Below are positions 468 through 20,751 of a DNA stretch of 64,000 nucleotides, in pieces. Below the pieces are notes generated by a model that was not told where the DNA came from, searched no databases, and was given only the letters and a program-made list of their open reading frames with translations. This DNA is from Candidatus Poribacteria bacterium. Its GTDB lineage: Bacteria > Poribacteria > WGA-4E > PCPOR2b. The stretch covers positions 3,136,001 through 3,200,000 of the forward strand of contig OZ242326.1 of the NCBI GenBank assembly GCA_965208325.1. The letters run 5' to 3'. Positions within the stretch are counted from its first letter, which is position 1; every line of letters starts with the position of its first letter. The translations under genes and the position numbers were made by a program.

Positions 468-834
468 ATCAATTATGGTTCCACAACGCCAGTTTGAAAT
501 TCAGAGTCCGTCCACAAGAGAGACTAATTTGAGATAGCCGATAAATATTATGGCACAATCGAGGGGGTTTTGGTAGTGAGAATTGGGTTGGCAACGCTGG
601 CGACTACGGATTTCATAAATTTTATAACGGGGACGATATATTTGGGTTAGAAAATTACAGTTTTTACAGTCTATAAAAAAAGGGGGAAAAAGCCGCTCAG
701 ATGTAGTGTTTTTGGGGTTCGGGAGGCTATAATTAACATATATTAATTTGATAGGAGTATAGTGTTGTTTTCCGAGTGACACGAATTTGGGATTGCGGCG
801 GAATTTTTCAACGTCATTGCGACGGAATTTGGAC

Positions 835-1114
835 GAAGTTTTTGTAGGTTGGGTTGAGCGGATTATCCCAAATCCGTTCCTATCCCAAAAAACGTTTCGA
901 ACACGAGCCGACGACCTTGGCTCATCACATTAAGCGTAACCCAACGCTTTTCGGATAATTCAAACTATTTCTATAATCGAAACACAGCGAAATAACCAAA
1001 AAGCGTTGGGTTACGCTCTACATTTTTTTCAACGTCATCGTATGGGAATTGGACGATGTTCGGGCGAACTGACGTTTCTGGGACTGGTCGCTCAACCCAA
1101 CCTACAAGAACTTC
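835..1114. repeat. Nested inverted pair of REP-like (GTAG-ended) elements
   Basis: GAAGTTTTTGTAGGTTGGGTTGAGCG (835-860) pairs with 1089-1114 with 1 mismatch. AGCGTAACCCAACGCTTTT (933-951) pairs perfectly with 999-1017. Confidence 0.85.
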
Positions 1115-1222
1115 ATCACAAATGCGGGGCAAGCGGAAAACTATTAGGAAGACTATCGCCATCGCTATTCACTCAGTTGATCCCCGCCTACAGGGAGTGT
1201 AGGGTCTAGCTACAAGTGTCAA
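1001..1222 (+). repeat. Left copy of composite direct repeat flanking the island
   Basis: 1089-1133 matches 20661-20705 at 42/45, and 1182-1211 matches 20709-20738 at 29/30. GTTGGGTTACGCTCT is also shared upstream. Confidence 0.85.
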
Positions 1223-1330
1223 GGAGGAGGATTTCACTCGCCAAGGCTGTTGCACGTGCTATTCACGCGCTTGATTGCTTAAACGAACTTACAGGAACTA
1301 GAGAATTCGGGAATTCAACATGAGAAAGAC

Positions 1331-1360
1331 TTGACAAAGCCACTATACTTAATGTAAAAT
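1331..1360 (+). promoter_or_regulatory. Putative sigma70 promoter for terS-terL
   Basis: TTGACA (1331-1336), 18-nt spacer, TAAAAT (1355-1360). An inverted repeat CCACTATA (1340-1347) / TATAGTGG (1369-1376) brackets the -10 box. Confidence 0.55.
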
Positions 1361-1502
1361 AGGCTGTATATAGTGGATATGCGGGCTTAAGTACACAATA
1401 TATGCAAATAAGTTCAACATTGTGAACTGCAGCCGGTGAAAAAACGGTTTACCTGCGGCGATTCACGACAAAAAACAAATTTCAGATTCGGGAGACACTA
1501 AA

Positions 1503-2063
1503 ATGAAACTGACAAAGGAGCGGATAGACAGTTTGGCTAAGGCTCTTCGGGGCGGCGCGATAATCAGATGGGCGTGCGTTTCGTCGGGGATATGCGAAAA
1601 GACATATTTCAACTGGCAAAACGAGTTTTCGGACGGGAAGTTAGAGCCGTTTGATCCCGACGAAACGCTCGACGAGAACCCTAGCCGCGAGGACCTACTC
1701 AGGTACTTTGTGCGCGAGACCGCAATGGCGTTGAACGATTATTCTTCCGGCTTATTGGAAAAGATTCATCAGGCGGACTCATGGCAGGCGGCGGCATGGA
1801 TTTTGGAGCGGCGATTCCCGGAGGAATTCGGGCGCCGCGCCGCCACCCAGCAATCAGAATCAGCGGATGAAGTGCATACGGAATCCGAAACGACGGAACA
1901 AACCGAGGCGGAGACCGGGGAACCAGAGGATAACCCGAGTCATCCGAACTATAACGGCAGACCCCCGAACGGGACCTTTGAGACGTTAGCCCGTCGTTGG
2001 GACAAACTAAACTCCCCGCGAAAAGCGGGAGGAAGGAGTAATGACAAGATGCCAGAAGTTTAA
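1503..2063 (+). CDS. Terminase small subunit-like HTH protein
   Basis: N-terminal HTH-like segment (ACVSSGICEKTYFNW) and the WQAAAWILERRFPEEFG motif seen in phage TerS-like proteins. GGAG RBS; overlaps the start of terL. Confidence 0.7.
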   Translation: MKLTKERIDSLAKALRGGAIIRWACVSSGICEKTYFNWQNEFSDGKLEPFDPDETLDENPSREDLLRYFVRETAMALNDYSSGLLEKIHQADSWQAAAWILERRFPEEFGRRAATQQSESADEVHTESETTEQTEAETGEPEDNPSHPNYNGRPPNGTFETLARRWDKLNSPRKAGGRSNDKMPEV

Positions 2064-3861
2064 GTGGCTGCAGTCGTGGGTTGAATCGCTCGATTGCAAT
2101 GAACAAATCATAACAATAAACGACATGCGGGAGGAACTTGCGCCCGAAGAACGCGGCGAATTCGACGAGATTGCGGGATTCGCGTCGATCGCCTACTTTG
2201 CGAAACGACATTTTCCCACTTTTACGAAATTGCCTTTCGGCAAACATCACACGACGTTTTTTAACCCCATCCCCCGCGGCGAACGCGGCATGAAAGTGAA
2301 TATTCTCGCCCCCCGCGGCTCCTCGAAGTCGACCTGCCTGGCGGTAATTTATCCACTCCACTGCATTTTCTACAAGTATCTGTACAAAGAGTTCGGGAGG
2401 CCGCACGACGATTACATTCTCATCCTGAGCCGCACCTACGAGAACGCAATTGAGCGCATCCAGGATATCCGTACGGAAATCGAATACAACGAGGCGTTTC
2501 AGCATCTCAAGAGCGACAAGACGTGGGGAGAAAAGCACTCGGTTACATCCAACGGCGTGAAGTTGGTTGCGCAGTCTCGCGGCGGCAAGGTCCGAGGCAA
2601 ACTGTCCAGAGGAACCCGTCCGTCGCTTGTAATTATGGACGACCTCGACGACCTCGACAGCATCAGGAATCCAAAGACGCTTGAAAAGGATACAGATTGG
2701 TGGGAGTCGGACCTGATGCAGTGCGGGGACGAGAATACCAATTTTATCTGCGTTGATACGGTCAAAGCGGTTAAGGCGATAGCGAATCAGCTTCAAGTGA
2801 AGCCGGGTTGGATTTCGCACAATTTTAAAGCAATAGAGTTTCCGACGGAATTGAAGCACCCGAAGCACGAAGCGGAATGGGACGGATATCGGGCGCTTTA
2901 CTGCGACCGCGCATTCGACCCGTTCGAACGTCAGGAAAAGTGCGATGCATTCTACGAGGCAAATAAAGCCGCGATGAACGAAGGCGTCGTGGAACAGTGG
3001 CCGGAAAAGTGGTCGTACCGGAGGATTCGCGAGAAGGAATTCGAAAGCGGCAGAGCGCTCATTTTACGGGAATACCAAAACCTGCCGGTCGACCGCGCGA
3101 TGGCGTGGTTCCCAATGGATGAAGCGATTACGTTTGAGACGACGCTAGAAGGATTGCTGCGTTCGGATGGTCGGCTGGTGCGCTGGGGAGAGCTCAGCGG
3201 CGCGACGATATTCCTGGACTGGGCGGGTGCCCGTGAGAGTCGGGAAGAGAACTGCTACGCCGCAGTGGTCACGGTGGTTTGGGAGCCCGTGGAAGATGGG
3301 AAATACGACGATATAATGACGGTTCCGGCGTACGGGTATGTATATTCAGTGAAGTTGCTTCGGGGGTCGCGAACCGAACAACTCGACGCACATATTCAAG
3401 AATTTATGAAGGTCAAATCGTTTTTGTCCCCGCGAGCAAATCGCCCGGATTTCTATTTGAGGTGCGAGGCTTTTGTGGATACGACCGGTGACATGGAAAT
3501 GAATTTCGATCGGGAGTACGATGCACTCCGGGCTAAACACAGGATTTCGGAACGCGTCAAATATGTCCCCCGAATTAAGCGTAAAGAAGACAGAATCGCC
3601 GCGCTCCAGGTACCCATAGAGAATGGTTGGTTATGTTTTTCGACGGAGTTGGCGGAACTGTATATGGATCAGATGCGGCATTTTCCTCACGAGCAGTTTA
3701 ACGACGGTCCCGACGCCACGGAAGGGGCATTTTCGGAACCCGTTACCATTACGATGGCACAGATTCGTGAAAAGCGGAGAAGGCGGAGGGAAGCGGCGGG
3801 TGACGAGGAGCCGTGGCACGAGACGAGGCGATTACCCGACTTCACGGTGCCCTACAGCTGA
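2041..3861 (+). CDS. terL: Phage terminase large subunit (ATPase + RNase H-like nuclease)
   Basis: Walker A APRGSSKST, Walker B RPSLVIMDDLDD, REYQNxP, nuclease acidic motifs IFLDWA and FPHEQFNDGPDATEGA. Uninterrupted 606 aa. Confidence 0.9.
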   Translation: MTRCQKFKWLQSWVESLDCNEQIITINDMREELAPEERGEFDEIAGFASIAYFAKRHFPTFTKLPFGKHHTTFFNPIPRGERGMKVNILAPRGSSKSTCLAVIYPLHCIFYKYLYKEFGRPHDDYILILSRTYENAIERIQDIRTEIEYNEAFQHLKSDKTWGEKHSVTSNGVKLVAQSRGGKVRGKLSRGTRPSLVIMDDLDDLDSIRNPKTLEKDTDWWESDLMQCGDENTNFICVDTVKAVKAIANQLQVKPGWISHNFKAIEFPTELKHPKHEAEWDGYRALYCDRAFDPFERQEKCDAFYEANKAAMNEGVVEQWPEKWSYRRIREKEFESGRALILREYQNLPVDRAMAWFPMDEAITFETTLEGLLRSDGRLVRWGELSGATIFLDWAGARESREENCYAAVVTVVWEPVEDGKYDDIMTVPAYGYVYSVKLLRGSRTEQLDAHIQEFMKVKSFLSPRANRPDFYLRCEAFVDTTGDMEMNFDREYDALRAKHRISERVKYVPRIKRKEDRIAALQVPIENGWLCFSTELAELYMDQMRHFPHEQFNDGPDATEGAFSEPVTITMAQIREKRRRRREAAGDEEPWHETRRLPDFTVPYS

Positions 3862-4234
3862 TCTCGAAATTTTCATTTTGCATCTTATGATTGGAACGCA
3901 TTGCGAACTAAACAACGGAACGAACGGTGATGGCAATGACTGCTACTTCTGCACGTAGGTTGCGTAGAGCGGTATTGTGAGAATCATGCAATTAAGGCCG
4001 CGTCTCTTGTGTGAGTAGAGGTTGAATCAAAATCGGCATTACTTCGGGAAACCTAACGAGCAAGCGTCCGAGCGGGAAGCGCGATAACATCGGTGCCGGT
4101 GAAAATTTCCGCGTACGAACTCTAATTGTGCACGCGGGCCGATGGCTCAAACTTTTCGGGCGGTGAATCGTTACCCAATCGAAAGGAATTGACCGGCATA
4201 GGGGACGATAGGCGCGCGGTTAGGTAGTCACGCA

Positions 4235-4540
4235 TCAATCTTTCGTATCTTCTGCCCGTGGGGACCGTGCGGTAGCGCCGCGCGCTAAAAGGTCTTCACG
4301 GGCGGTATCCAGTTTTTCGAGCAATATCTCTCCGACGGCCTCTCCGAGAACTTCAGCGGCCCGATGCAGCACGATTGAACGTAGTTCAAGCATTTTATCC
4401 TTGTTTTCATGATACAAGACCGCTTGCTTCGACACGCCGTACGCTTCGGCAATTTTATCGAGCGGAATTCCTATCAACCGGCTGATGATTATGTCGAGCG
4501 TATCCAAATCCGTTATCTTACGTCCGTCTTGTCTTGCCAA
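4235..4540 (-). CDS. Small helix-turn-helix DNA-binding protein
   Basis: HTH-like IPLDKIAEAYGVSKQAVLYH; GGAGG RBS before the TTG start. Confidence 0.7.
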   Translation of the reverse strand: MARQDGRKITDLDTLDIIISRLIGIPLDKIAEAYGVSKQAVLYHENKDKMLELRSIVLHRAAEVLGEAVGEILLEKLDTAREDLLARGATARSPRAEDTKD

Positions 4541-4640
4541 TGAAATCCCTCCAAAATTCGCAATAAGAAACTATCACCCCCTATTCTATAGGATTAGCCG
4601 GCATTCGTCAGTTTGACTTACTTTGTATTAGTTTTTGTTA

Positions 4641-4668
4641 TTGACAAACGAAAATATTTTGCTATCAT
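4641..4668 (+). promoter_or_regulatory. Putative sigma70 promoter for the 4845 gene
   Basis: TTGACA (4641-4646), 16 nt, TATCAT (4663-4668) with an extended TG. Confidence 0.45.
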
Positions 4669-4844
4669 CCTCTCATTCGGGGCTGAGGTGATTTCGTTAA
4701 GCGCAAGGATGGCAGAGCGCACGTTGGAAAATACTGATTTGCCAATTATTGCCACAGTCCCATTCATGGTGCAATTTAACGCATCCGTTAAACGGTTCAG
4801 TATGTCTATCGGAATAAATCCAGCGCTAAGAGAGGATATTTGTA

Positions 4845-5558
4845 GTGGAACAATTCATGCTAGTTAGTATCTACGCTTTGACTTTTTCTCTGTGCATTTC
4901 ACCGGCAACCGCTCAAGAAGCATACCTTGATATAGTCACGCTCAAAGACGGGACAGTTTTAGAAGGAAGAATATTAACAGATCTTCAACCACACCACCTC
5001 GAAAAACGAGTTTTAGTATTACAACGAACCAATCCTAACGGATTTCACGAGACCTTAGAAATCCCGTGGGATAAAATTCAGGATGTTAATCGGAAAACCT
5101 ATTATCGCCCAATACAGACAACAATGAGGAAGAAAGATAAGTATTTTGCAGGGTGTACCTCATTTGTATTGCCCGGCCTCGGACATTTCTACGCAGGAGA
5201 ACCGGAAAAAGGTATGATGTTTAGCGTCTCGGGTATATTGGGCTGGACGCTCCTAATCACGGGGGCAAATGATAACGTAGGTAAAATTGATTTTGACGGC
5301 GACGACGATTTAGTGCTTTTCGGTTTCTTTTTGTTACTCGGCGCTACGGTATTCTCGGTAATAGACTCCATAGATAGCGTTGAAGAATTTAACGCACAAG
5401 TAGCTAAGTCAGTGAGACAGGAAGAATTACCATTCGCGATACTGCCGGGCACGCCGAAGTCCTATCGCGAGGGAGAACCGGGCGACATAAATTACCAGCC
5501 GGAATCAGCGGGAAACGAAGAAGAAAAGGCAGGGGCGACACTCCGGATTCCTTTTTAA
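4845..5558 (+). CDS. Exported/membrane protein with TM2-like hairpin
   Basis: Signal peptide (…SPATAQ), DIVTLKDGTVLEGRI beta domain, SFVLPGLGHFYAG TM2-like motif, further hydrophobic helices. Confidence 0.65.
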   Translation: MEQFMLVSIYALTFSLCISPATAQEAYLDIVTLKDGTVLEGRILTDLQPHHLEKRVLVLQRTNPNGFHETLEIPWDKIQDVNRKTYYRPIQTTMRKKDKYFAGCTSFVLPGLGHFYAGEPEKGMMFSVSGILGWTLLITGANDNVGKIDFDGDDDLVLFGFFLLLGATVFSVIDSIDSVEEFNAQVAKSVRQEELPFAILPGTPKSYREGEPGDINYQPESAGNEEEKAGATLRIPF

Positions 5559-5955
5559 CCCAACGCGCCGAAAGCGATAAGAATTTTAACCAGAATTGAC
5601 CATATACAGGTCACTACTTGTTTCGATTTCAAGCAAAGGGGTTTCCAACGGAGCATAATGCTCCAGGGAGAAGGCGTAAAACGGATAGCAGCAGACGGAT
5701 GACAAGCCAGAGACAGAATTGTTAAATCCGATAAATCGAAACACAGTGATTCGACGGGGATAAACTCAACAAAGGCGGATATCACTTGTGGAAAGCAACA
5801 CTAATGTGAGTTTTTGGGCGGAGAAGCGCAATTTGACGTCTTGCAATGTAGAGCGGTTCCATCAGGCATTCAATTATCGCGCACCACATCAGGTGAATTT
5901 TCAATAATCGGAGCCGTTTAAAACCTGAATAGGTTGCAAAGGGTTTCAGCTACAC

Positions 5956-6753
5956 TTAATCCGAATCGCTCCGCATATGTTCATGTTGCGGTTCAAGCGC
6001 ATGGCAGGCGGTACACAGAACCTTTAGGTTTGCGTCCGAGTTGTCGTATCGTAATCCGTTGATGTGGTGGACGTGTAAAAGAGGCCGGCTTTCGGCGGCG
6101 CTAAAATCTCCTCCGCAGCTCTCACATGTCCAGTCATTTTCCTCGCGGAGGCGGAGTGAGGTTGCTGGCCAGTCGCTTGTATATTCGTTTAATGGGGCCG
6201 TAATCTCAGCGTGTATTGGAGTCGGCGTAATCTGCGAAGGGTATTGCAAAAAAAATTCTTGCAATTCAAATGCGTTCACGGTTTGGCGCTGTTCAGCACG
6301 TCTACAATCATTATAATCTTTATAGTTCAGTGCTTTCAGACAATTTATACAAACGGCTAACCTTTGCTCCGCTCCCTCCTCGATTAAGTTGCGCGCGTCG
6401 TCGTAAGAGTTTACGGTAAACATCCCATCGTTGCGCGTTGCAACGACATATCTGTCGTACCGGTTATCTGCTCTCATCCTAGATAATGTGTCGCAATTTG
6501 CAACGTGAAACTTATACGGTTGATACTCTACGCGTTGGTCGCGAATATACACAACAACTTTTCGGCCTCTGTATTCGAGCGTGCCGTCATCAGGATATTC
6601 GAGAGCATCCGGTGAGATATCAAGTCCCCTTGTGTCCAGCGCAAGGCTTATCGGGTCCCAGTCTCTTTCGGAATTCCATGAAACAAGTTCGGCACGCATT
6701 TGTTCACGCAACCGATTTAATCCTTCATTCTGTAAAAAATCAGGTAGGATCAT
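5956..6753 (-). CDS. zorE: Zorya type II HNH nuclease effector ZorE
   Basis: VVVYIRD...FHVANCDTL...RYV N-terminal region; CESCG...LHVHHING...DNSDANLKVLCTACH HNH motif; overlaps zorB by 4 nt. Confidence 0.85.
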   Translation of the reverse strand: MILPDFLQNEGLNRLREQMRAELVSWNSERDWDPISLALDTRGLDISPDALEYPDDGTLEYRGRKVVVYIRDQRVEYQPYKFHVANCDTLSRMRADNRYDRYVVATRNDGMFTVNSYDDARNLIEEGAEQRLAVCINCLKALNYKDYNDCRRAEQRQTVNAFELQEFFLQYPSQITPTPIHAEITAPLNEYTSDWPATSLRLREENDWTCESCGGDFSAAESRPLLHVHHINGLRYDNSDANLKVLCTACHALEPQHEHMRSDSD

Positions 6754-7556
6754 TCTTGCTCTCCTGACTTTTTCATATGCTCTTCTAGTTTTTCTACCAG
6801 TGCCGCTATTCGTTTTTCAGCGTTTGTGCGCACTCGGAACTCTACTCGTCGTGATTCTTGCCGATTTTGTGTGCCATCTGGATTAAAGATTAGTTTGCTT
6901 GATGATAATCCGTTTGCAGTAAGATGCTTCGTGATCCATAGTTTGTTGCGCTGAATCTGAGGGTGTTTGATGTCAAGCACGTATTCTAGTACGCTTCTTG
7001 TTCTATCCTGCGACAACTTCATGTTGTGAATGTAGGCTTTGTGTGGGCGGTCGTCCCTATACCATTCGCTTGACGTGTGTCCTTCAATCCTAATTTCGGC
7101 GATATCATTCCTGTATTTGTATTCGCCGTCCTTCGTCTTAGTTTCTGTTAGTATCTCAATGTATTCCGGGAAAAATTTATTCAAAATCTCCTTGAAAGGC
7201 GGCCGTACGATAGCCTTACCTTGCGCAAATAACACTTCAGGTTCTCTGAATCGAATAGATAGCGTTTTCCTATTCAAGACAGCATTCCATTCTTTGAGAT
7301 GCGGGGAAAACTTCCTCTCAAGGTCGTTAAACAGATCGCGCTTCAAGTTCTTGTGTGTGTCAACAATTTGCTCAATCTGCGCAATAAGTTCTATCAAAAT
7401 TTGATTATCACCGCTTACATGCAGCATGTAACTGATGGCGATGAAAAGGAATATTACCATCAGCCCTGCCATCATGTCCGAAATAGATATCCAGTGTTCC
7501 TCCGTGTCTTGCTCTTTGCGTCTTAAAATGTCACCGTTGTGCATGGGATTCCTCAA
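6750..7556 (-). CDS. zorB: Zorya ZorB (MotB/OmpA-like peptidoglycan-binding membrane protein)
   Basis: WISISDMMAGLMVIFLFIAI TM with the conserved Asp; IRIEGHTS, NMKLSQDR and SRRVEF OmpA-like motifs. Confidence 0.9.
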   Translation of the reverse strand: MRNPMHNGDILRRKEQDTEEHWISISDMMAGLMVIFLFIAISYMLHVSGDNQILIELIAQIEQIVDTHKNLKRDLFNDLERKFSPHLKEWNAVLNRKTLSIRFREPEVLFAQGKAIVRPPFKEILNKFFPEYIEILTETKTKDGEYKYRNDIAEIRIEGHTSSEWYRDDRPHKAYIHNMKLSQDRTRSVLEYVLDIKHPQIQRNKLWITKHLTANGLSSSKLIFNPDGTQNRQESRRVEFRVRTNAEKRIAALVEKLEEHMKKSGEQE

Positions 7557-7568
7557 CTTTAATTGGCG

Positions 7569-9344
7569 TTAGGTAGTCCTTCCTTGTATATTGCGCGCTA
7601 TGTCGAGCACATCATTTAAGCGGTTCGTTAATGGTGTGTAGTCTTGAACAAATTGATTTGACAAGCTGGTTAACTGGCTTCCTAGTGATTCCAATGACCT
7701 TGTGAGTTCTTCTTGAAGGGCTTCATCCAAGAATCGAATTTGCTGATTCATTCGTTCAGCACTCTCTCGAAAAACACGTTCCGATTCATTACTAATCGTA
7801 CTAAGCTGCTGTGATTGGGTCTGGAGCGTTTCTTCCAATTGACCGTTGGTGTTTTCCAATGTAGTGCGCAAGGTTTCGGAGGTGCTCTGGATGGCGGCTG
7901 CAAGCTGTGTCGTGAATCCCGTTAAAGTTTCTCTTTGCCTTTCCATGTGAATTTGTGAATTGGCGAGCGAGTCTTGTACAACGGTTGAAAATCCATCGGT
8001 TATGGTTTTAATCTGGGCGCTTGTGTTTTCTACCGTCGTCTCAAGCTGATTTGATTGTGTTTGGAGAGTATTTTCTAATCCCCGGTTAGTTTTAACGATT
8101 GTAGCCTCGAGCTGGTTAGCTTGGTTTTCTAATGCGCTTTTGAATCCTTGAAAAGTATCATTGATAATCTGTTCAACGTGCGCAGTGGTGCTCTTGAACA
8201 TGGCTTCGGTTTGCTGTTGGATACGAACCGCTGTATCATCCACCGTTTGTTCAAGTTGTTTAGACTGATTAGCCAGCGCAGCACGTTGTTTATCCATAGA
8301 AGCGTGCGAGTTGTCAATGGCCCCCTGCACCGCTTGAGAAAAGCCGTTCGTTAATTCATCCAGACGCTTTTCGACAATGGGGAATGCATCACGTGCATTT
8401 TCAGCCAGAGCGCTAAATGCCTCAAGATGCGCCTCCAGTTGCCCAATCTGCTGCTGCAGCGCTTTAAGTATGGGATCAAGTTTTTCTGAACTTGATACGA
8501 TTGCGTCGCTTCGGTCAGCAATTACGCCTAATGATTGACTTGATTTTTCTACGCATTCAGCGGCGATTCTAAACTCCTGTGCTAATTCGTCCATCTGTTG
8601 CCGATACTGTTCTTGCCAATCGTTGATTCGTCCTACCGCTTCGTTCAAATGCTTGAAGTTATCTCCAAATTGTTCAGTGATTTTCTGGTTGAAATCTTTT
8701 ATGACTTGCTCAAGCGCCTGGATCAAAGTTTTGACATTATCCGCCGCCATCTTTTCGGCAAATGTGTTAAACGTTTGAACCACTTCGTCTTGCTTATCTG
8801 AAAACGTGCGAATCAAATCGTCCTGTTTGTCAGAAAACGTGGTTCGCAGCTTTTGCATTTGGGTCAACACCGTGCTATCGCCCTCTCCCGTTAACGATTT
8901 TTCAATGGCTTGAAGCGCCTCTTTTGTTTCTAGTCCTTCCTCTTTCTCAACGGTGAGGATGTCGCGCAACAATTCCGCAAGGTCATCAACTGTTGCACCG
9001 GTGTAAGTGGTCGCTGAATCCCGCTGTTTACGCTGTTTGTTTAGGGTTGACCACTTGATGGCAATTGAACCAGCGATGCCCACAATGGACGTGATAAAGG
9101 CAAATCTCAATCCTTCGAGTAACCGCTCCACACTGTCTTTGATTCTATCGGGATCGAAGTGTAATAGGCCCCAAGCGATTCCAATAAATGTACCAAGTAC
9201 GCCGATGATGGTCACGATAGAAGCGATTCCGTTGACCTGGTGGTGCCGAATCTTTCGAAACCAAATTATTGCCAGCAATATGAAGGCCACGAAAACAGTG
9301 ATAAGAGCAATTGAAAAAAAATCTGGGGTGAATTTATCCGTCAT
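7569..9344 (-). CDS. zorA: Zorya ZorA (MotA-like TMs + long helical tail)
   Basis: Three TMs including IGVLGTFIGI and GLRFAFITSIVG, followed by a long Q/T/L-rich coiled-coil with ITEQFGDNFK; first gene of zorABE. Confidence 0.9.
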   Translation of the reverse strand: MTDKFTPDFFSIALITVFVAFILLAIIWFRKIRHHQVNGIASIVTIIGVLGTFIGIAWGLLHFDPDRIKDSVERLLEGLRFAFITSIVGIAGSIAIKWSTLNKQRKQRDSATTYTGATVDDLAELLRDILTVEKEEGLETKEALQAIEKSLTGEGDSTVLTQMQKLRTTFSDKQDDLIRTFSDKQDEVVQTFNTFAEKMAADNVKTLIQALEQVIKDFNQKITEQFGDNFKHLNEAVGRINDWQEQYRQQMDELAQEFRIAAECVEKSSQSLGVIADRSDAIVSSSEKLDPILKALQQQIGQLEAHLEAFSALAENARDAFPIVEKRLDELTNGFSQAVQGAIDNSHASMDKQRAALANQSKQLEQTVDDTAVRIQQQTEAMFKSTTAHVEQIINDTFQGFKSALENQANQLEATIVKTNRGLENTLQTQSNQLETTVENTSAQIKTITDGFSTVVQDSLANSQIHMERQRETLTGFTTQLAAAIQSTSETLRTTLENTNGQLEETLQTQSQQLSTISNESERVFRESAERMNQQIRFLDEALQEELTRSLESLGSQLTSLSNQFVQDYTPLTNRLNDVLDIARNIQGRTT

Positions 9345-9741
9345 TAATTTTCCTCCTTTAAGTCTGTTGGCGAAAATCTGTCAAGTATGACTGGCAACCG
9401 TGGGCTTGCCAGAATTTGGGAAAAAATGTCCCTAAAGTTTATGTATCATCATGGTAAGGTTTGCATGGCCAAACGGGAAATTCGCGAGTACGATTATACT
9501 GTGCAGATGAAGTGTGCCTACAAATTCGTTTCGCGGCGAGCGTTGTTTTAAAATACGCGGAGGCAGGGCAACCCGCAGCCAATCCAGGTTGCAACGTTGA
9601 ATAAAATCTGCCAATCAACGGTTGTGAAGCGAAGCAAGATTGATGCATCTTGTCGTTTTCCCTTGAGGTATTGAACAATTTGCAAAATTTTTGAATAGCG
9701 CCGCCCCTTTATCGCTTGGTCGCAGTTAATAGAAGGAGCAT

Positions 9742-10779
9742 TCACACATATCCTAGCGGGGTCATCAGCTTTCTAAGTTCTTTTGAGACAACTAAGTCGA
9801 ACGTGTTGTTCTTAGGCGTATGGAACTCTATAGACGCTACGAATCTGTACTCCTGCTGCGCTTTATATTCTATCTGCTTTACGAAGGGCAGAAAATCGCC
9901 TTCTCGGAACTGGGGTATACCGGCGATAAATGGCGGGATGTTTTTGGTCTCTAGGTAAAGTACAGGTCCGTGGTCAATAAATATAGAATAGCCGCCCGGC
10001 CGTTCTTTGTGTCGTGCGTGTGCGGCAGCGAGAACACTCTTTTCCGCCATAGATAACCCGTGCGTAGTAGAATAACATGCAAGTGTATTTTCGATGTATT
10101 CCTTTGTGGGAGGGGATACAATCGAGAAAAGTTCAGGCGCGCTGCATTGGAAGTCCTCTTCAATCCTTACTTGTTTTCCGAAGTCGTAACCGAGTTGCTT
10201 AGCGAAATTTGACGGATTATTGATGCGAGTCATAAAATCGTAGTTGGCGGAGAGATTGTCCCGTTGTTTCATTCTCTGGCGGCGAGTGTCAGGTGAAATT
10301 GAAGTACAATACATCCACTCATCGGGCCCCGACAGCGTGAGTGTTATATGCGCGTTGGCGTGCTCAAAATCGACGGGACTCTCTCGCAAGCTCTTTTTCA
10401 AGAATTCTGTTGGGGTGGTTCCTTTTCTTTTCCAATCGAGTTGCTCCACTAAGATGGAATCTAGCTTGTCAGCGATTAGCTCGGAGTGCTTGTCTGGATT
10501 AAGGCCGCGAAAGACGATTGGTGTTGCTAATCGAATGTGCGTCGAGGGTGTAGCCGACACCGGCGAGAATTGTGAAGCTGAATACTTTATCAAGGCGGGC
10601 ACATCGGAAGGCGGAAGCTGAATACCTCGAGCGAAGTCAGCACTGTCCCAATCAATTGAACGAATAACCAACGAATACGATGGGTTGTTTGGGTCGATAG
10701 CCACCTGCTCAATCTTTACTCCATTCAAAAATTCCGGGTGTGATTGAGCGATATCTTCAAGAGGATTGATTACAAACAT
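9742..10779 (-). CDS. Hypothetical protein (C-terminal K..EY..QQEYRF motif)
   Basis: 345-aa open frame, co-oriented with the defence genes; WMYCTS and FVKQIEYKAQQEYRFV segments. Confidence 0.6.
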   Translation of the reverse strand: MFVINPLEDIAQSHPEFLNGVKIEQVAIDPNNPSYSLVIRSIDWDSADFARGIQLPPSDVPALIKYSASQFSPVSATPSTHIRLATPIVFRGLNPDKHSELIADKLDSILVEQLDWKRKGTTPTEFLKKSLRESPVDFEHANAHITLTLSGPDEWMYCTSISPDTRRQRMKQRDNLSANYDFMTRINNPSNFAKQLGYDFGKQVRIEEDFQCSAPELFSIVSPPTKEYIENTLACYSTTHGLSMAEKSVLAAAHARHKERPGGYSIFIDHGPVLYLETKNIPPFIAGIPQFREGDFLPFVKQIEYKAQQEYRFVASIEFHTPKNNTFDLVVSKELRKLMTPLGYV

Positions 10780-10953
10780 CAGGAAAAAATTTTTGCTTTA
10801 CGGACCTAGGTGAAAAATGCCGAGCCGGAAATCGCCGTAGCGCGGCGCACGATCGGTATTATTGTGGTAATGTGATTTAGGATTACCGAGCCAGAATTAT
10901 GTGCACTGTACCCGATTGTGTTTAAAATTCCATTCTGGTTTGCTAGTTCACGA

Positions 10954-11062
10954 AGGTTGGGTTGAGCAGCGTTCGTTTAACGCGGGGATAAAGACGAAGG
11001 GGTTTCGGTCAATTGAAGGTGCTTGTGACTTGCATGGTGTTGCGAAACCCAACCTACAAAAA
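10954..11062. repeat. REP-like doublet of the same family as 835-1114
   Basis: AGGTTGGGTTGAGC ... GCGAAACCCAACCTACAAAA as inverted arms. Confidence 0.75.
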
Positions 11063-11106
11063 CTCTCTTGCCAAGCAATGCAGTATTTCACAAATTTTCC
11101 AATTTT

Positions 11107-11622
11107 CTATATATACGGACGTGGATTGGTTTTCTTTCTCAAATACAATGGATGCTTAGGAGTGCCGTCAGCGTTTACGCCTAACGTTTTAATGACTATA
11201 CCACTGGAACGCAGTATATCAAGGACGAAATTATCGCGCACTAACCCTTTTCTTTTCCTGCCCCAACCGGCAATAAACAAGTCGGCCTCTTCCACATTCT
11301 TTGAAATGTATTTGTCGTTGCTCTCACCTACAGGATCCGAACACCTCAACAAGTCTTTTGGATCAGGGGCACGATGGGCATACAGATTGACCACGACAAG
11401 ACGCGAGTAGCCCCACTCTTTAGCAAAGCCAACGCAACGCCTGATAGTGTGATCATCTTTCACCGCATCCGCTTTCGAGGGATTTAACAGACAGAAAACG
11501 ACTTTTCCCTCCTTAACAGTGTTTTGTGCAAGTTCCGACGGTGACCACTCCCTGATAAGCTCGTATCGGTACGTCCCGCAATCTGAAATTTTGGCGGAAC
11601 TATTCGTGTATTTAAAGTTCAT
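11107..11622 (-). CDS. DUF1643 domain protein
   Basis: SDCGTYRYEL.REW, LNPSKAD...DHTIRRC..FA..WG, VNLYA, AGWG, PKHPLY: the typical DUF1643 motif series. Confidence 0.85.
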   Translation of the reverse strand: MNFKYTNSSAKISDCGTYRYELIREWSPSELAQNTVKEGKVVFCLLNPSKADAVKDDHTIRRCVGFAKEWGYSRLVVVNLYAHRAPDPKDLLRCSDPVGESNDKYISKNVEEADLFIAGWGRKRKGLVRDNFVLDILRSSGIVIKTLGVNADGTPKHPLYLRKKTNPRPYI

Positions 11623-12161
11623 AGGAAATTCTTTTCCTTTTCGGGTTGTAGGGGCGCAATGCGTGCACGTCGAACGATGATGCGCAATCGCAACTTTGAA
11701 ACAGATTCATTATCCAACACCGTAAGTTGACTTACCGCTAGGAGTTAACTGTAATCTGGGATGGCAGGATTTCAATGATGCGTGTTGATTCGACTCTGAC
11801 ATGGACAATACTTATTATTTTGGCGACGGTTATTTCGCCAGCGAATACCATGCGTTTGTACGCTGCGGGAATCCAACCGGTTTGTTAAGTCAACAGCAAA
11901 ATAATCGAAACGGCAAAACACTACAGGGTTGTTTGGAGGCCGGTACGCTACAATGCACGTAATGTTTATTGGAGGTCACTGTTATTGAAGAGTGGCGTAA
12001 CGGAGAAAAATAGTGTGGACCATCCCCGTTCCTAATCGTTTCGTTGCTCACTCCTTCTTGGGTCTGTTAATCTGTCGATCTTATCCCAACCCTCAAGAAC
12101 TATAAGAATGAGGGCGAACGAGCACGTGCTTTAAGGAAAAGGAAGGGCGCGGTATGTACCG

Positions 12162-12668
12162 TCAATGCTCGCGGAAATCGAGACTGAAGGATTCCTCGTA
12201 TAATTCATTCATGGAATCTTGGTAAGACACACTGATTTTAAGCGATGATTGCATGAAATTATTGAAATCATTATGTGATCCATGGCCTACGCTCTGCTCT
12301 CTATTTTCTCCCGGAGGCATATAGTTGATGCCCGTCGAAAGGAATCTCACCTCGCTTAGTGAGCGTCTACCACTAATCGGAAAGGATAATTCAGTATCAA
12401 ACTTTATATGATACGCGGGGCCCACACCAATATTTTTCACACAAAGAAACACAGTAGTATGGTTTGTCGTCTCAGACCGCAGATGGATTGCCATCCGGGG
12501 TTTTTGGGCATTTAAACGCATTTGCTTGTTTTCGTCTAGTATGTCCTTTGTTAATTTGACGTAGTCTCGCGTTAAGCGGACATAACGCCATGTGATGACC
12601 GCCAACACTACGGCGGCGCCCCCAGTAATAAAGCTAATGACTATCGAAAAGACATCCTTGAATTCCAT
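12162..12668 (-). CDS. Hypothetical membrane-anchored protein (TM, short coil, beta domain)
   Basis: N-terminal TM, then a helix, then a beta-rich region with VKNIGVGPA. Confidence 0.65.
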   Translation of the reverse strand: MEFKDVFSIVISFITGGAAVVLAVITWRYVRLTRDYVKLTKDILDENKQMRLNAQKPRMAIHLRSETTNHTTVFLCVKNIGVGPAYHIKFDTELSFPISGRRSLSEVRFLSTGINYMPPGENREQSVGHGSHNDFNNFMQSSLKISVSYQDSMNELYEESFSLDFREH

Positions 12669-12848
12669 AAATTACTCATGATGATTCTGTTTCAATGTAA
12701 TTGTTCTACTGTAATGAGCGGTCGATTATCCATCAGCTAATCTGCAATCTGCACTACATTGTTTCAATAATTCGCGCTGATTTGACGCACGGATGGAAAA
12801 ATTGTAGCCCGCGGATTCAGATTACGAGAGTTCGCCGGGAGATGTGAC

Positions 12849-15632
12849 TCAGACTTTGTACACCTTCATTACTTCATCGCCATATTTGTTAATAATTTTT
12901 ACAGCAATTGAGCCGGTTTTTGGATAGGGGAATGGTCTGCTGACCGTGCGGTAGAGGGAGTTCCATGCCTCCTCGTTAATTTGCGTCTTTAATGTATTTT
13001 CGAGGACTTTATACGGGGGTCGTCCGTTAGAGCCTGAAAAGTATGCGTGACGGACGATAAAGATTTCGCCATTGTAATTTGTATCAATGAACCAGCAAAG
13101 GATTTTGTCTGTCGAATCAGAGCGCATTTGGTCTTTAGTCGGGACATACACATCCACGCCCTTTAGTTCCACGACGATTTGTGAGTCTAGTTCTTCCAAT
13201 TTTATGATGTCTACATCAGGTTCACCGAAAATCATGAAAAGATTCGCAGTGTCCGTCTTTTTCAGAAGATCGTCGTCGTTCATCATGAGGTCGCTGTGAA
13301 TGCGCACGGTTTCCACGTGCAATATTTTTCTGTATTGCGTAAGCTCAGTAGACACGGACGGCTCGTATGCGTAACCACAGACTATTAGTAAATCGTACCC
13401 CAAGCCTTTCCTTGCTTCTTTCACTGCTTCTTTAATTATTTCGGAAGTAACGCTGCCGAACTCAGGCCCTATGCAGATTGCGACTCGCCTTATTTCTTCA
13501 TCCACAGAGTATTCACCCTCGGCTGAAAGTGATAAGCCAGGGTATAAAGCAATCCAATCAAATTTTAGCCGCTCGCTTTTCACTCCGTTTTGGATGCCCG
13601 CCTTTTTAAGGTTCTCAATTACCATTGTCTCGAACTGCTCCGCGTTTGATTGCGGCTGTTGCTCGGTATCGGTCATCGTTGGTAAAACACGATAAGGAGA
13701 TAGGCTTTCAACGGTGAACGGGCCAGTAACGCGGCACCTTTTCTTGTCGATGTGCGGGTCGTCGTAACAAATGACAAATTCAGAATGCCGGTCAATAGCG
13801 GCGTCAATTTCGGCTTGACGTTTGCGTTTCAGCTCCCACCACGCGTCGATTTCACTTCTGAGCGTCGGCTGCGATTCCGTAATGGAAGCCGCGACCGGTA
13901 TTTCCCACTCTTCCCAAGTCGTATCGGCTAGACGATTGATTTCTGCTCGAATCGAATCTAGCTCATTCTGAAATTGCGCGTGAATGTCATCAATTCCAGG
14001 GGTGTTCGCAATTGATAAGAGTGTTTTGTGTTGAATGCACTTGTAGACGAATCCTTTCTTAATGTCCCCGCTAGTGTTCTTAAGGTAGTCAGGAGACGCT
14101 AGTTCCTCATCGCGTTTTTGCTTCGCTTCGGCTTTTAAGCCGTCAGGTGAATCTAGTAGGAGATAGTAGTCATATTTTGCTGACATTAGGCGGACGCGAG
14201 CTAATGCAAGCATGACACGAGAGGTGTCGATGGTTATCCAGCGTCTGCCCCATTGTTCAGCTACGTATGCCGTTGTGCCACTCCCACACGTTGGATCAAG
14301 CACAAGATCACCAGGGTCGGTAGTCATGAGGATGCAACGCTGGACAACTTTTGGTCTTGTCTGTACGACAGCCAACTTCTCATTAAAGTCTACTACATCG
14401 TTCCAGACTTCCGAAAGAGTTTTACGAGGTTTATCATCAATGAAGTCTTTATATCGCAAAGTCTCGCCCGCCTTTATTATCCGGCCGGTTTTTCTTAGAG
14501 CAGACATTCTTTCGGGGTAATTCAATCTCCAATGGCCACCTGCTGATGGTCTGAACACCTTGCCTTCAAATTCAAAAGGAGTATCTTCCGCGGCTTCGCC
14601 TTGGGAGGTCAAACTAATATCCTGGTATATTTTAGCTCCATTTGGTAGAAGCGACCGATCTGCTTTTTCCTCCCTAGTGAGTTTTCTTGTTGAACCGTCT
14701 GGCAACTCAACATTGGTGTAATAATCGTCAATTGTTTTTTCAGATTTATAGATTTTGTTGTACTTCAGATTCTCCTTATTCTGAGCGTACCAGATCAGAT
14801 AATCGCTTGTTCTTCCTAGATGCTTGGTACCCAATGGCGAGGCTATTTTGGCAAACGCTATTTGCCTGACAAAGTTGTCCCTACCAAAAACTTCATCCAT
14901 TAGACAGCGGACGAGGTGGACATTTTCATCGCCTATCTGAACGAATATGCTGCCCGTGTCGTTCAGCAATTGCCGCGCAACACTAAGGCGGTCTCTAAGG
15001 TAGGTTAGGTAAGAATGAATCTGTAGCTTCCATGTATCCCGATATGCCTTGATTACCTCTGGTTCGCGGGTGACATCTTCGGGGTTTTCATTGACGCCTT
15101 TCTTTTGCGTGGTAGGCTGCCAATTACTAGAGAAGGTGATTCCATAGGGCGGATCGATATAAATCATTTGAACCTTACCCTTGAGAGTTTCCTTGTGCGC
15201 CAGGGAGTTCATTACTAGTCGGGAGTCGCCGAGAATGATGCGGTTGCTCCAGTTATGCTCGTGCTGATAAAAGTCGATTAGCTTGGTAAACTCGATGTTT
15301 TCGTACACATCGTCGAACAAATTGCGGTATTGTTCGCTATCGCCGTTTTTTCTTAGGTCTGCTATGATTGCCTTGGAATCAATGTTTTCTTGAATGTAGA
15401 TGGGGAGAAGATCGACTTCGAGGTCGCTGGCATTTTGCTCGTCTTTGCCTTTCCAGACGAGCTGCGGGTCAAGCGATGCGTCGCGCGGGTATGAGATTTT
15501 CATCGGTGACTTCTCCTCGTCTTGCGCAAAACCGCTCAATTCTTCCGTGGGGTTATTCTTTCTTTTGTCTGGGTGTATAGTGTTTTCGATGGCTCGTGGT
15601 GATTGTGTCCCATTTCGTCGTTGTCGTGACAT
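12849..15632 (-). CDS. mod: Site-specific DNA adenine methyltransferase (type III Mod-like)
   Basis: IYIDPPYGI catalytic motif precedes the VLDPTCGSGTT SAM-binding motif (beta class); adjacent to the Res-like gene. Confidence 0.9.
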   Translation of the reverse strand: MSRQRRNGTQSPRAIENTIHPDKRKNNPTEELSGFAQDEEKSPMKISYPRDASLDPQLVWKGKDEQNASDLEVDLLPIYIQENIDSKAIIADLRKNGDSEQYRNLFDDVYENIEFTKLIDFYQHEHNWSNRIILGDSRLVMNSLAHKETLKGKVQMIYIDPPYGITFSSNWQPTTQKKGVNENPEDVTREPEVIKAYRDTWKLQIHSYLTYLRDRLSVARQLLNDTGSIFVQIGDENVHLVRCLMDEVFGRDNFVRQIAFAKIASPLGTKHLGRTSDYLIWYAQNKENLKYNKIYKSEKTIDDYYTNVELPDGSTRKLTREEKADRSLLPNGAKIYQDISLTSQGEAAEDTPFEFEGKVFRPSAGGHWRLNYPERMSALRKTGRIIKAGETLRYKDFIDDKPRKTLSEVWNDVVDFNEKLAVVQTRPKVVQRCILMTTDPGDLVLDPTCGSGTTAYVAEQWGRRWITIDTSRVMLALARVRLMSAKYDYYLLLDSPDGLKAEAKQKRDEELASPDYLKNTSGDIKKGFVYKCIQHKTLLSIANTPGIDDIHAQFQNELDSIRAEINRLADTTWEEWEIPVAASITESQPTLRSEIDAWWELKRKRQAEIDAAIDRHSEFVICYDDPHIDKKRCRVTGPFTVESLSPYRVLPTMTDTEQQPQSNAEQFETMVIENLKKAGIQNGVKSERLKFDWIALYPGLSLSAEGEYSVDEEIRRVAICIGPEFGSVTSEIIKEAVKEARKGLGYDLLIVCGYAYEPSVSTELTQYRKILHVETVRIHSDLMMNDDDLLKKTDTANLFMIFGEPDVDIIKLEELDSQIVVELKGVDVYVPTKDQMRSDSTDKILCWFIDTNYNGEIFIVRHAYFSGSNGRPPYKVLENTLKTQINEEAWNSLYRTVSRPFPYPKTGSIAVKIINKYGDEVMKVYKV

Positions 15633-15676
15633 TTATTCTCCTATGATAAATGGTGGGTTGGGTGAAAGAGGAATTT

Positions 15677-18600
15677 CTAAACAACGTTATCAATGAAACC
15701 GTTTATGGCGGTTCGCGCTGTGGATAGGTTTGATATTTCAAGCATTTGCCATTGTGCTGAATCAAAAGGATTGTTCGTTTTCTTGTCGGCTACGGACGTT
15801 ATGAAGTTGTTGACGGCGGGACACCACAATGAGTTCGCAGTAGCTACTTTCTCCTTTTTTTTTGCCTTTGCTTTTGGATCACTTGGGTTGCCGGATACTT
15901 CGAGTATTAAATTAAGCAGTTTGTTTTCCCGGTTTTCGATGTGGAGAATGAAATCGGGGATGTACTCACTTCGTTTGCTGTCGAAAACGTATGGGATGCT
16001 AAAATCAAGATTATAGTTTTTGACATACGACGACACGTTGTCCATCCCCTCAAAAATCCTTGCGATGTCTTCCTCCCAGCCCGAATGTAATGTAACGTGC
16101 GAGATATGGCATTTTGTTTCGGTCTCGTAAACAGGGAGGGCTGTATCGAATGCTACATACCGGGTTGAGCCACTTTGCCGATAGCGCTCGAAAATAGGCT
16201 GAATCTCGGAACGTTCACGCGCCGTGTTTTTTATTGCGTTATGGATTCTTTCTGCTGCTTCGCGTCTGTATTCATCAAGCAAAAGCAGTTGCGGATATGC
16301 GCCGTAATGGTAAACAACAAATTCCTCCCGCCAACGTCGCACGATTTCGCGCAACTGCGGAAAAAGCCAGATGTTGTCGCTGAAATATCTGGTCAAGATT
16401 TCGCGGGCTATCCCATAATCGACTTCCTGAACACGTTTCCTTTCGAGGTCGGTAAGGGCTATATGTTCGTCGCCTAAGATTGAGGCGGTAGTCGTGCGAT
16501 CGGCTATCGCCTCAACTTCGTAACGCGCCGCCTCGCCAAACGCGACTTTAAGCACATCTTCGTGGTAGGGATACGTATACCCGCTTAAACGAGGAAAAGT
16601 GATTTCCCATTTTATACGCTCTTGCAATGCACGAACATGCGTCGTCGGTTTTGGGTCTGGCCTCTTCATCGTACCCGCTGACGGAATAAAGGAAAAGGGA
16701 ATGCCATAGACCTCTGCAAACTGAGCCGGGTAGGTCAATTGTTCCGGATTGGCATGCAACGGTTCAGTTTCTTCGTAGTCTGTCCGCCTTAATCCGCGAC
16801 CAACAACCTGCTCACACAGTAGCTGAGTGCTGAACGCACGGACGCCGAGGATATGGGTAACTGTTTTTGCATCCCAGCCCTCCGTGAGCATTGACACCGA
16901 GATGACACACTTGATTTGTTCGCCCATTTTGCCGCGTTTTCCGACTGTGTTCATTACCTCACGCAGCAACTCACCGTCTTTTATCTTTTCAGGATCTTTA
17001 CCGGGATTTCTTGCTTGATAATCCTTTTTGAATTGCGCAATTTCTGTCGCGGCGGCTCTTTTGAAAGTGCCGCTCAACTGCTCTCCTGATTCCGTTTCAC
17101 CGCTGTGGATAAGGATTGTGTTAGGTCTAACCAACCAGTTTCCATCTTTTGCATTGCTAAAGAGCGGCAGTTTGCCGTCCTCTATACTTTCGCCTCCACC
17201 AGGAAGTTGCTTTTTATGACCCGACACCCAATCTCGGACTAACCTAGATACCCTAATGTTGTTGCAAACAATAATCATCACTGGGGGAGAAGTGTTTTTT
17301 GAGTCCGATTCCCATCGGTGATGATATGTCTCATAACTGCCGTAGAGACTTCGGAGCGCAGTTTCTAGTTCTTCAGGGAGACTAACATCGCTGGTTATTC
17401 TGCTGTTCGCTTTTGGCAGTTTATCTTTAATGTGAGGCCAGAGCACAAGATTGACTGGTTGAGATGCGGAGGGCAAACTGTCATCAACCGGGACGCGGGG
17501 AACTTTGACAATCCCGCTTTCTATGGCATCAATCAGGGAAAAGTCGCTGACAACCCATGGGAATAAAACACCTTCGGCTATTCTCTTTCCTCCGCGGACT
17601 TCTCTGCTGTATCCGGCCCCTTTTATAAAAAATGGGGTTGCGGATAGGTCGTATACCACCTTGACGCCCAATTTCTGGTTAACAGCTTCAATACCAGAAA
17701 TCCAGATTCTTGCTTCATCGTTCCTGTCGTCCATCTCCTTTTCTTCATCCTTATCAACGCCCGCGATTTCATCACCCGATTGCTTAGCACGGTAGCAGTG
17801 GTGCGCTTCATCGTTAAATACAATGATATTTTTTTTCGCTTTTAGCTGGCGCAAAACACGATTCACCATGCGACCTGGGGTTTCCTGCAGGACTTCGGGA
17901 TCTGCTTTAAGCACTTTTCCTACAACCTCGGATACGTCCTTGCGTGGCTTAAACTTGTGATAATTTTCGATGACGATATTTGCTTGCGCCAGTTCTTCTC
18001 TGTGACCATGCGGTACGATATCGCGCTCTTTATAGTAGTTTTCGCGCGCCTGTGGATAAAGGACCTTTAAGCGCTCTCGAATTGTTACACCAGGGGTTAA
18101 AATCAGGAAAGCATCGGAAAACTTTTTATCCCGCCGGTTGGCTACTTTGTTAAGTGTGTGCCACGCTATCAACATCGCCATGACGACAGTTTTACCGGCA
18201 CCCGTCGCCATCTTGAATGCGATTCGGAACAGCAGGGAATTAGCTTCGGCATTAGCATCGCGAATTTGGTTTTCAATCCAACCAGCACCTTCTTTTTTTG
18301 CCACTTCCGTGATGTAGATAGCAGTTTCGACAGCTTCAATTTGGCAGAAGAATAATTTTTTTTCTCGGTCGGGGTTGTTCCAATGCTCTAGCAGTTGCCG
18401 AGTGATAGGGGTTATGCCGCGATACCCTCCCCTGCGCCAAGTGATAACCTTCTCCCGGACTTCGTTTATGAATTTGTTTGGCTCAATGTCATTTTTAAGC
18501 CAATCGTCGCCAAAGTCAATAACGCCTTGATCGGGATTGGCTCGCAACCCTTTCGGGCGCGGGACGGGAATAAAATACTCGCTTTGCCGCCGAGACTCAA

Positions 18601-18712: not shown

Positions 18713-19117
18713 ACCTCAATCTCCTTTATTCTTATTCACAATTTAGCGGCTAATGGCGTTAGAATACATAAATGGTATCTGGTCGATTTTGTTATAGTAG
18801 TTATGTCTAATGACCGCATGGTTGGGATTCACGGTTTCCGTAGATAGACATTGTTAACCGGCTCATTGTAAACGGGAGCGACACGGAGATTCCTCTTTAT
18901 CAGGCGCTCAAACTCGTTGCCTACAAGGTATGAGTTAGATGCAGTGTCAATCAGAGAATTGATAGGTGCATTAAATCCGGTTTCAGTTTTACTGCTTTCT
19001 GCTTTGAAACCGCGGTAAAGCTGCGGTGTTTCTGCCATATTTTCGCATCCTTGCTCGGCTTCAATTCTGTTGCGCTTGTCAGTGTCTGAAATTCGCTGCT
19101 AACTGTTTATTGCCGTA

Positions 19118-20570: not shown

Positions 20571-20751
20571 AAGAGTTGGGTTACGCTCTGCAAATTATTC
20601 CGAGGTCACGGTAATGGAATTGGGACGATGTTCGTTAGCAGTAGCGTTATGGCTATTACCCGCTCAACCCAACCTACAAAATCTTCATTACAAATGCGGG
20701 GCAAGATGCCCCGCCTACAGGTAGTGTAGGGTCTAGCTCCCCCTTGTCAAG
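20571..20751 (+). repeat. Right copy of composite direct repeat flanking the island
   Basis: Same block order as 1001-1222. Contains the palindrome GCGGGGCAAGATGCCCCGC followed by CTAC. Confidence 0.85.

Follow-up and report, generated by a model that had tools for sequence, protein, structure and literature searches.

The 64,000-nucleotide window analysed here (assembly GCA_965208325.1, contig OZ242326.1, positions 3,136,001 to 3,200,000) comes from the genome of a Candidatus Poribacteria bacterium, hereafter G000, which consists of a single contig of 4.71 Mb and is 95.6% complete. Two phage-type packaging genes lie near the left end of the window on the forward strand: terS (1503..2063), encoding a terminase small subunit of 186 amino acids (aa; phrog_4102, E 3.6e-20), and terL (2041..3861), encoding a large subunit of 606 aa with an ATPase and an RNase H-like nuclease domain and intact catalytic residues (phrog_38, E 1.2e-44). 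The initial annotation had described both genes as full-length, overlapping frames at the head of a defence island, with no other virion gene in the 64 kb, and this description stands. The two open frames overlap by 23 nt, each is preceded by a GGAG-type ribosome-binding site, and genes of a Zorya type II system and a type III restriction-modification (RM) pair follow downstream; searches against Pfam (49 open reading frames, ORFs) and PHROGs (16 ORFs) found no further virion gene apart from one weak and partial 'head and packaging' match (12162-12668, phrog_687, E 1.2e-3, 69 of 469 profile positions). A misassembly downstream of terL had been named as a possible source of error, and it can be dismissed because one independently assembled 19.7-kb contig covers window positions 1163-9500 with 0 differences; it comes from run X1, which may be the source sample. 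Contig depth was flat across the island, although this measure cannot rank regions. Judged from sequence, the terS-terL pair is a real, well-bounded and selected arrangement of known parts whose function is putative.

The ATPase and nuclease motifs noted earlier in TerL are all present. Walker A reads APRGSSKS and Walker B VIMDD, with aspartate at the position of the canonical glutamate, likewise in 10 of 10 portal-linked relatives, and the nuclease residues are D393, E476, D480, D555 and D558. We refer to a terL without a portal gene nearby as an orphan, and portal-linked TerL proteins served as the comparison set. Across 27 orphans and 10 portal-linked proteins, R92, K96, R185, D200, D201, T240, E344, D393, E476, D480, D555 and D558 are invariant; since packaging needs both ATPase and nuclease, the intact residues in orphans fit a packaging role. 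The AlphaFold model of TerL (mean predicted local distance difference test score 88) found its best Foldseek matches in the large terminases of PhiV-1, T4 gp17, D6E and HK97. By sequence, TerL gave no Pfam match at E<=1e-3 and nothing in a PDB sequence search, and a single-protein search found no close viral or metagenome relatives; alignment-based searches returned distant viral or metagenome relatives only (best 34-35%), and the similarity to described phages is about 25% identity, to Mu-like and Bacillus/Paenibacillus terminases. The window TerS belongs to the same family as the TerS of prophage-like clusters in genus g5.

The pair is not single in its genome. G000 carries five full-length terL genes, the other four being 38-51% identical to the window terL, and three terL fragments. 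Its congeners G001, G002 and G003, which together with G000 make up the genus g1 set, have 8, 6 and 5 intact terL genes, giving 24 in the four genomes, and a small partner gene is found upstream of every one of these 24 full-length copies. In a profile survey of 176 Poribacteria genomes, TerL was matched in 35 (three by fragments only) and the cognate portal in 19, with no portal match in any of the four g1 genomes or in nine terL-bearing g8 genomes, some of which are fragmented. In the four g1 genomes no portal was found by phrog_156, by a custom profile of the cognate portal or by PF05133, and PF04860, PF05065 and PF11651 had no match in G000, each of these models having matched elsewhere; in total, four portal models and two capsid models were negative for G000. 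A Mu portal model matched nothing, not even the controls, and carries no weight here. Structural genes of the related prophage-like clusters were likewise not found in G000 by tblastn and iterated hidden Markov models, except for a fragment of a head-tail adaptor (73 aa), located 2 kb from a different cassette. These negatives rest on sequence-level searches, past which a very divergent capsid could slip. Besides the three terL fragments, G000 contains about ten terS fragments and trailer remnants of TerL clade B. A neighbourhood survey had been proposed to see whether the lack of a portal is conserved; all five of the closest homologues of the window terL whose context is known (73-75% identical) are likewise orphans.

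Several further loci bear on the distribution of these genes. Solo TerS-like genes without terL are found at island edges (G000:C1:1583992-1585140, 3599377-3600252 and 1350885-1351319; L069:16876-17415; L308:5800-6705), and some of them adjoin the end motif described below or a clade-B trailer. A recent 95% duplicate of the clade-C cassette in G000 (L006, G000:C1:3240920-3242381) retains an intact terS, but its terL is truncated; a primase gene is located about 3 kb away. In genus g11 (L057, L058, L063-L065), 8 of 10 genomes combine one intact portal with 2-7 terL matches, and a resident structural cluster serving several cassettes, similar to a gene transfer agent (GTA), is possible there.

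The bounds of the unit are best seen in clade A of the TerL trees, which comprises the window copy and the five homologues at 73-75% identity in G001 and G003. The latter five have a common stretch of about 3 kb with 82-92% nucleotide identity, and their flanks mostly differ. All six cassettes have the same 30-bp motif at the left end, which begins at 651 in the window, and in all six the similarity stops at or just past the terL stop codon. The window motif, with its TTACAGT direct repeat (651..685, forward strand), lies about 40 bp inside the synteny breakpoint and is a candidate pac or recombination site. A sigma-70-type promoter, predicted from its match to the consensus (TTGACA-18-TAAAAT, 1331..1360, forward strand), is present in 6/6 clade-A copies, with TAAAAT or TAATAT as the -10 element. 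No terminator was found in the clade-A leader, the whole fold of which shows no more than a weak stem of 12 bp, with two compensatory pairs. The six copies have a mosaic structure: across species their leaders are 95-99% alike and their coding blocks, in patches, 68-99%, the mark of patchwork recombination between copies. The DNA upstream is core DNA in all five other copies (0.67-1.0 covered by G000) and the DNA downstream is non-core (0-0.37), and the window copy has the same polarity. Two of the copies have a common upstream core but different cargo, and two have common cargo but different upstream DNA.

The motif is not limited to the cassettes. It occurs in 8-14 copies per g1 genome, with 0 in the reversed control and 0 in the rest of the 176 genomes. 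Of the 34 sites outside G000, which are not independent of one another, 29 were examined, and at 24 of these G000 shares more of the DNA preceding the motif than of the DNA following it. Copies also flank the Zorya locus of G001, which has no terL, and a site in G003 where G001 carries a cassette. The motif is therefore not private to the terminase and is better seen as a mark of island edges. This genus-specific and nearly invariant element (window 651-685, loci L266-L315) usually stands at a junction of core and island; L298 and L299 have tandem copies, and in L296 two inverted copies enclose 6.3 kb of RM cargo. Its sole viral match, in a contig with 23% GC, was taken as chance.

Selection on terL was estimated as the ratio of nonsynonymous to synonymous substitution rates (dN/dS) by the Nei-Gojobori method with bootstrap intervals. 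The window terL gave dN/dS of 0.16-0.20 against three clade mates (intervals 0.12-0.26), and five terL pairs at orthologous chromosomal sites gave 0.19-0.40, compared with 0.07-0.09 for four pairs of portal-linked terL, so that the constraint on orphans is 2-4 times weaker. The bootstrap intervals are all below 0.6 and mostly do not overlap those of the prophages; two flanking host genes gave 0.08-0.21. Even the same-site pairs with dS of 0.08-0.15 (host gene 0.125) show dN/dS of 0.32-0.40, and in neutral simulations at dS-level divergence the frame was still open in 0-2 of 400 runs. In 7 of the 9 orphan pairs analysed, constraint on the ATPase half equals or exceeds that on the nuclease half. 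Low dN/dS together with invariant catalytic residues indicates that the enzyme is kept, under a constraint weaker than in phages. On these alignments, the terS-terL cassettes appear to be maintained by purifying but relaxed selection and are not plain dead remnants.

The C-terminal tail of TerL, counted from D555 (3703..3861, forward strand, 52 aa), has a charged helix and a hydrophobic end and is hypervariable in clade A; it is likely the portal-docking segment by analogy with other phages. In T3, lambda, SPP1 and P22 the portal is bound by a charged, hydrophobic TerL C-terminus (PMC13595956). In all 10 portal-linked TerL proteins, 37-40 residues follow from the DGPD motif onward and close in a hydrophobic, strand-like word. 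This phage-type tail is kept in most orphans of clade D and of genera g8 and g11, and tails in clades A, B and C are 43-52 residues long. Within clade A, identity over the last 30 positions is 32%, versus 68-90% in the rest of the protein and 77% in the g5 prophages. The tails thus support portal docking for part of the family, and for the window copy docking may be lost or the tail may be diversifying.

Quick maximum-likelihood trees, unrooted, were built from sets of 63 and 22 TerL rows. Clade A is sister to the portal-linked TerL of the genus-g5 clusters (Shimodaira-Hasegawa-like approximate likelihood ratio test 84 with 63 rows and 92 with 22 rows), and clade D is sister to the TerL of genus g11, part of which is portal-linked. 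Monophyly of ten g1 orphans was rejected by the approximately unbiased (AU) test (p-AU 3e-36), and rejection was not reached for monophyly of clades A and C together (p-AU 0.35). The stand-alone state has therefore arisen repeatedly, or else orphans and phages swap terminases; the direction of change is beyond the reach of an unrooted tree. In the g5 clusters (L044-L053; TerL 53% identical), terL is accompanied by genes for an internal virion protein, an adaptor and a P22-type portal. The gene for their phrog_4102 TerS lies downstream of terL at a distance of about 16 kb, and for this reason simple deletion does not yield the terS-terL order. These clusters adjoin a GHMP kinase gene and are interleaved with many repeated host-like genes; they may be prophages or domesticated elements. 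Portal-bearing relatives of the cassettes are known from prophage-like loci (L044-L053, L058, L198), from a Poribacteria contig (L212) and from an IMG/VR phage (L089, 34%). L212, a Poribacteria-binned contig of 38 kb that carries terS-terL-portal along with further structural genes, may exemplify the type of helper phage discussed below. A 403-aa capsid candidate is regarded as capsid only on account of where it lies and of its 31% identity with the corresponding L089 gene.

The window cassette stands at the left end of a variable island (613..20905) between penicillin amidase and DUF488/AMP-binding genes. Synteny with G002 and G001 stops at window positions 604 and 611 (G003: 482) and resumes at 20906-21749. 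The orthologous site holds 17.7 kb of other DNA in G002, 18.4 kb in G001 and 3.6 kb in G003, with RM or helicase genes and terL in 0/3; the site is a hotspot which carries other defence cargo without the terminase in 3/3 congeners. At this site G002 has a weak TerS-like gene (E 3e-4) and a fragment of another. The leader of the window copy contains a composite repeat similar to repetitive extragenic palindromes (REP; 835..1211), which is not in the five other clade-A leaders. Part of it (999-1211) recurs in direct orientation at 20569-20738, so that it lies near both island ends, and G000 has about 470 such REP-like cores; these direct repeats could be a recombination route, though they are multicopy. 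The island is bracketed only by this repeat, the congeners carry other islands at the site, and no transfer RNA or transfer-messenger RNA gene is adjacent. No integrase was found in the window, the nearest of four PF00589 matches in G000 being about 166 kb off, and no primase or replication module was found among the island ORFs with Pfam and PHROGs.

Downstream of terL follow a small helix-turn-helix (HTH) gene, a membrane protein gene, Zorya II and the type III RM pair. The HTH protein (4235..4540, reverse strand) is cargo and not part of the cassette; it has homologues in 7 of 10 genus-g11 genomes (1-3 copies) and is absent in the other three g1 genomes. The Zorya type II genes zorA2, zorB2 and zorE2 (5956..9344, reverse strand) are convergent with terL, and they and the RM genes res and mod (12849..18712, reverse strand) are island cargo. 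ORFs 9742-10779, 12162-12668, 19118-19474 and 19861-20220 have no confident family and are candidate defence genes, with a weak PDC-S62 match for 19118-19474. The congeners carry Zorya at a different site, with no terL there. For the 4 kb around each cassette, a PADLOC scan (E<=1e-25; 103 of 106 listed ORFs, omitting three core genes common to L041 and L043; weak mad3 and RtcR-like matches excluded) found a clear defence gene near 4 of 15 other cassette sites, versus 4 of 16 evenly picked 8-kb control windows of G000 (RecQ-like and HEAT matches excluded), which is no enrichment. A clear defence system lies within 4 kb at three of five distinct clade-A sites scanned (the window, L039 and L043; not L040 or L041). 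TerS and TerL themselves had 0 matches among the PADLOC families. The Zorya/RM island is likely a passenger of the cassette and not its purpose. A family of 310-330 aa with no Pfam or PHROG match forms the first gene of several islands (L070:1386-2318, at the window site in G001; G000:C1:2334899-2335849 and 1709217-1710134). Its 310-aa member in L070 resembles TerS by eye, which searches did not confirm, and DUF2280 gave nothing in five genomes.

Compared with known systems, the cassette is closest to the holoterminase of P22-portal podophages (phrog_38/phrog_4102) in fold, catalytic residues, TerS family and sister position in the tree. It differs in having no neighbouring or detected portal, capsid or tail genes, its own sigma-70 promoter, a multicopy state, an altered tail and dN/dS 2-4 times higher. 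Like Staphylococcus aureus pathogenicity islands (SaPI), other phage-inducible chromosomal islands (PICI, with their own TerS and the helper's TerL) and PICI-like elements (PLE), it lies at the border of a variable island, encodes packaging functions and no capsid, and is predicted to depend on a helper, but unlike them it carries TerL itself and no integrase, primase or attachment (att) sites. Most satellites have no motor of their own (10.1101/2024.04.22.590561; PMC4936722), and capsid-forming PICIs (cf-PICIs) encode their own packaging genes (10.1101/2022.09.08.507074). For the cassette, which likewise has its own packaging genes, the capsid proteins and integrase of cf-PICIs were not found. 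The packaging genes of cf-PICIs include both terminase subunits. Lateral transduction moves defence islands downstream of pac sites, with an induced prophage or PICI as the driver (PMC12829572). The likeness lies in the proposed in-situ headful packaging from a chromosomal pac site followed by homologous recombination, and here the driver is proposed to be a terminase-only unit. In RcGTA and its kin, phage-derived packaging genes in the bacterial chromosome are also under purifying selection, but the cassette has neither a structural cluster nor a fixed locus and occurs in several unrelated copies. An insertion sequence or transposon was rejected, as there is no transposase, the motif is at one end only and the right flanks are unrelated. 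No description of terminase-only chromosomal cassettes was found in the literature searched, which did not cover most subscription journals and supplements.

The cassette's bounds, its copy number, the selection on it, its repeated descent from podophage lineages with a portal and the patchwork exchange of DNA among copies are observed. On this basis we tentatively propose, with a probability of about 0.4, that the cassette is a minimal packaging parasite, which cuts the chromosome near itself and fills the procapsids of an infecting podophage. The unit of about 3 kb would consist of the end motif, the promoter, terS and terL, and the host would express TerS-TerL from the sigma-70-type promoter. 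Infection by a related P22-portal podophage would be the trigger. The host-made TerS-TerL would bind a site in or before the cassette and then cut the chromosome, and TerL would dock on an empty procapsid of the infecting phage for headful packaging of the cassette and downstream DNA, so that any DNA downstream of the cassette could be carried along. As in lateral transduction, the recipient would take up the DNA by homologous recombination, for which core genes, REP-like repeats or a cassette already in its chromosome would provide the homology. With several divergent pairs, one genome would be served by more than one helper lineage, and competition for procapsids would also reduce phage yield. 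A packaging parasite fits because catalysis is intact in both domains, tails are retained in several clades, the pairs are divergent and the cargo is swapped. Among the three readings offered in the initial annotation a packaging hijacker is the best fit; the part that tied it to the Zorya/RM island does not hold, given that the congeners have no terL at the site and that defence genes are not enriched.

A number of observations weigh against this proposal. No helper phage was found for genus g1, IMG/VR holds no close TerL (best 34%), and 0 of 41 CRISPR (clustered regularly interspaced short palindromic repeats) spacers match any locus examined. Portal docking may be lost in precisely clade A, as its divergent tails suggest. 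The motif occurs without a clade-A terminase, with 12 copies in G002, which has none, and where it accompanies remnants of clade B it faces them from downstream; most clade-D cassettes are directed outward, from the island into core DNA. There is no integrase and no precise empty site with target duplication to explain arrival at new sites, and at two sites G000 has only decayed copies where those of the congeners are intact. The weaker constraint than in portal-linked terL and the absence of defence enrichment belong here as well.

Much of the same evidence may be read differently. If the pair were a domesticated anti-phage factor, the terminase would poison the phage motor or portal, or phage-activated cutting of phage concatemers or host DNA would cause abortive infection, and packaging of its own DNA would be unnecessary. 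The own host-type promoter, the retained nuclease residues, the number of divergent copies, which a defence covering several phages would lead one to expect, a hypervariable tail that could mirror an arms race and the defence systems beside three of the five scanned clade-A sites agree with this. Yet such a role is improbable in our estimate: neither protein belongs to a PADLOC family, defence neighbours at the other sites are as frequent as in control windows, intact catalysis is superfluous for a pure decoy, and defence alone does not account for multicopy spread with sharp common ends. We give equally little credence to slowly decaying prophage relics, in which podophages at hotspots would have lost their structural genes and terS-terL would be refreshed by recombination with circulating phage alleles, the signal of selection having been earned in phages. 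The portal-linked sister clade, dN/dS above that of prophages, the diverged tail, the mosaic copies and the debris in G000 (terL and terS fragments, clade-B trailer remnants and the adaptor fragment) are what decay would leave. A simple prophage remnant, which the initial annotation had weighed as the alternative, gains from the sister clade in portal-bearing prophage-like clusters and from the weaker selection but not from the closest homologues, all five of which are orphans. Decay also has to face 24 intact terL genes against no portal found in four genomes, the low dN/dS of same-site pairs set against the rarely open neutral frames, the end of 6/6 clade-A copies at the terL stop, and a gene order not obtainable by simple deletion from g5 clusters.

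Even less probable is an addiction module, in which the TerL nuclease would be toxic without TerS and the pair would persist like an RM or toxin-antitoxin unit, hitch-hiking on islands. T4 TerS is known to dampen the TerL nuclease, and the translational coupling suggested by the 23-nt overlap, the partner gene upstream of 24/24 full-length g1 copies and catalysis kept while the clade-A tail drifts are in line with such a module. Solo terS-like genes and decayed pairs are common, though, the ATPase half is constrained at least like the nuclease half in 7/9 orphan pairs, and other orphan clades retain the phage-type tail. The packaging module of a dispersed GTA, with head and tail genes elsewhere in the genome, had also been considered and is very unlikely, being largely refuted for G000: in sequence-level searches the portal, capsid candidate, scaffold and tail genes of cognate phages were not found in its one contig and no head genes were found in genus g1, and the window copy is not at a fixed locus, its site having no terL in 3/3 congeners. 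In the g11 genomes with an intact portal, a resident structural cluster could serve in this way.

Described satellites either borrow the TerL of a helper or bring an entire head module. If the packaging-parasite proposal is true, a complete motor without anything else, evolved several times and present in 5-8 copies per genome under selection, would be the smallest packaging parasite yet. A broader and rather doubtful extension is that Poribacteria have repeatedly evolved a phage parasite of a new and minimal kind, an integrase-free, capsid-free two-gene terminase cassette. Each of its sites, and perhaps every copy of the 30-bp motif, would then act as an origin of lateral transduction when podophages arrive and so drive the turnover of islands genome-wide. 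In genomes with such cassettes, prophage content is overestimated when terL genes are counted. The pair would put a viral motor to a new use under the defence or addiction explanations as well, and as a packaging parasite it would give an uncultured sponge symbiont without an intact prophage a route of horizontal transfer.

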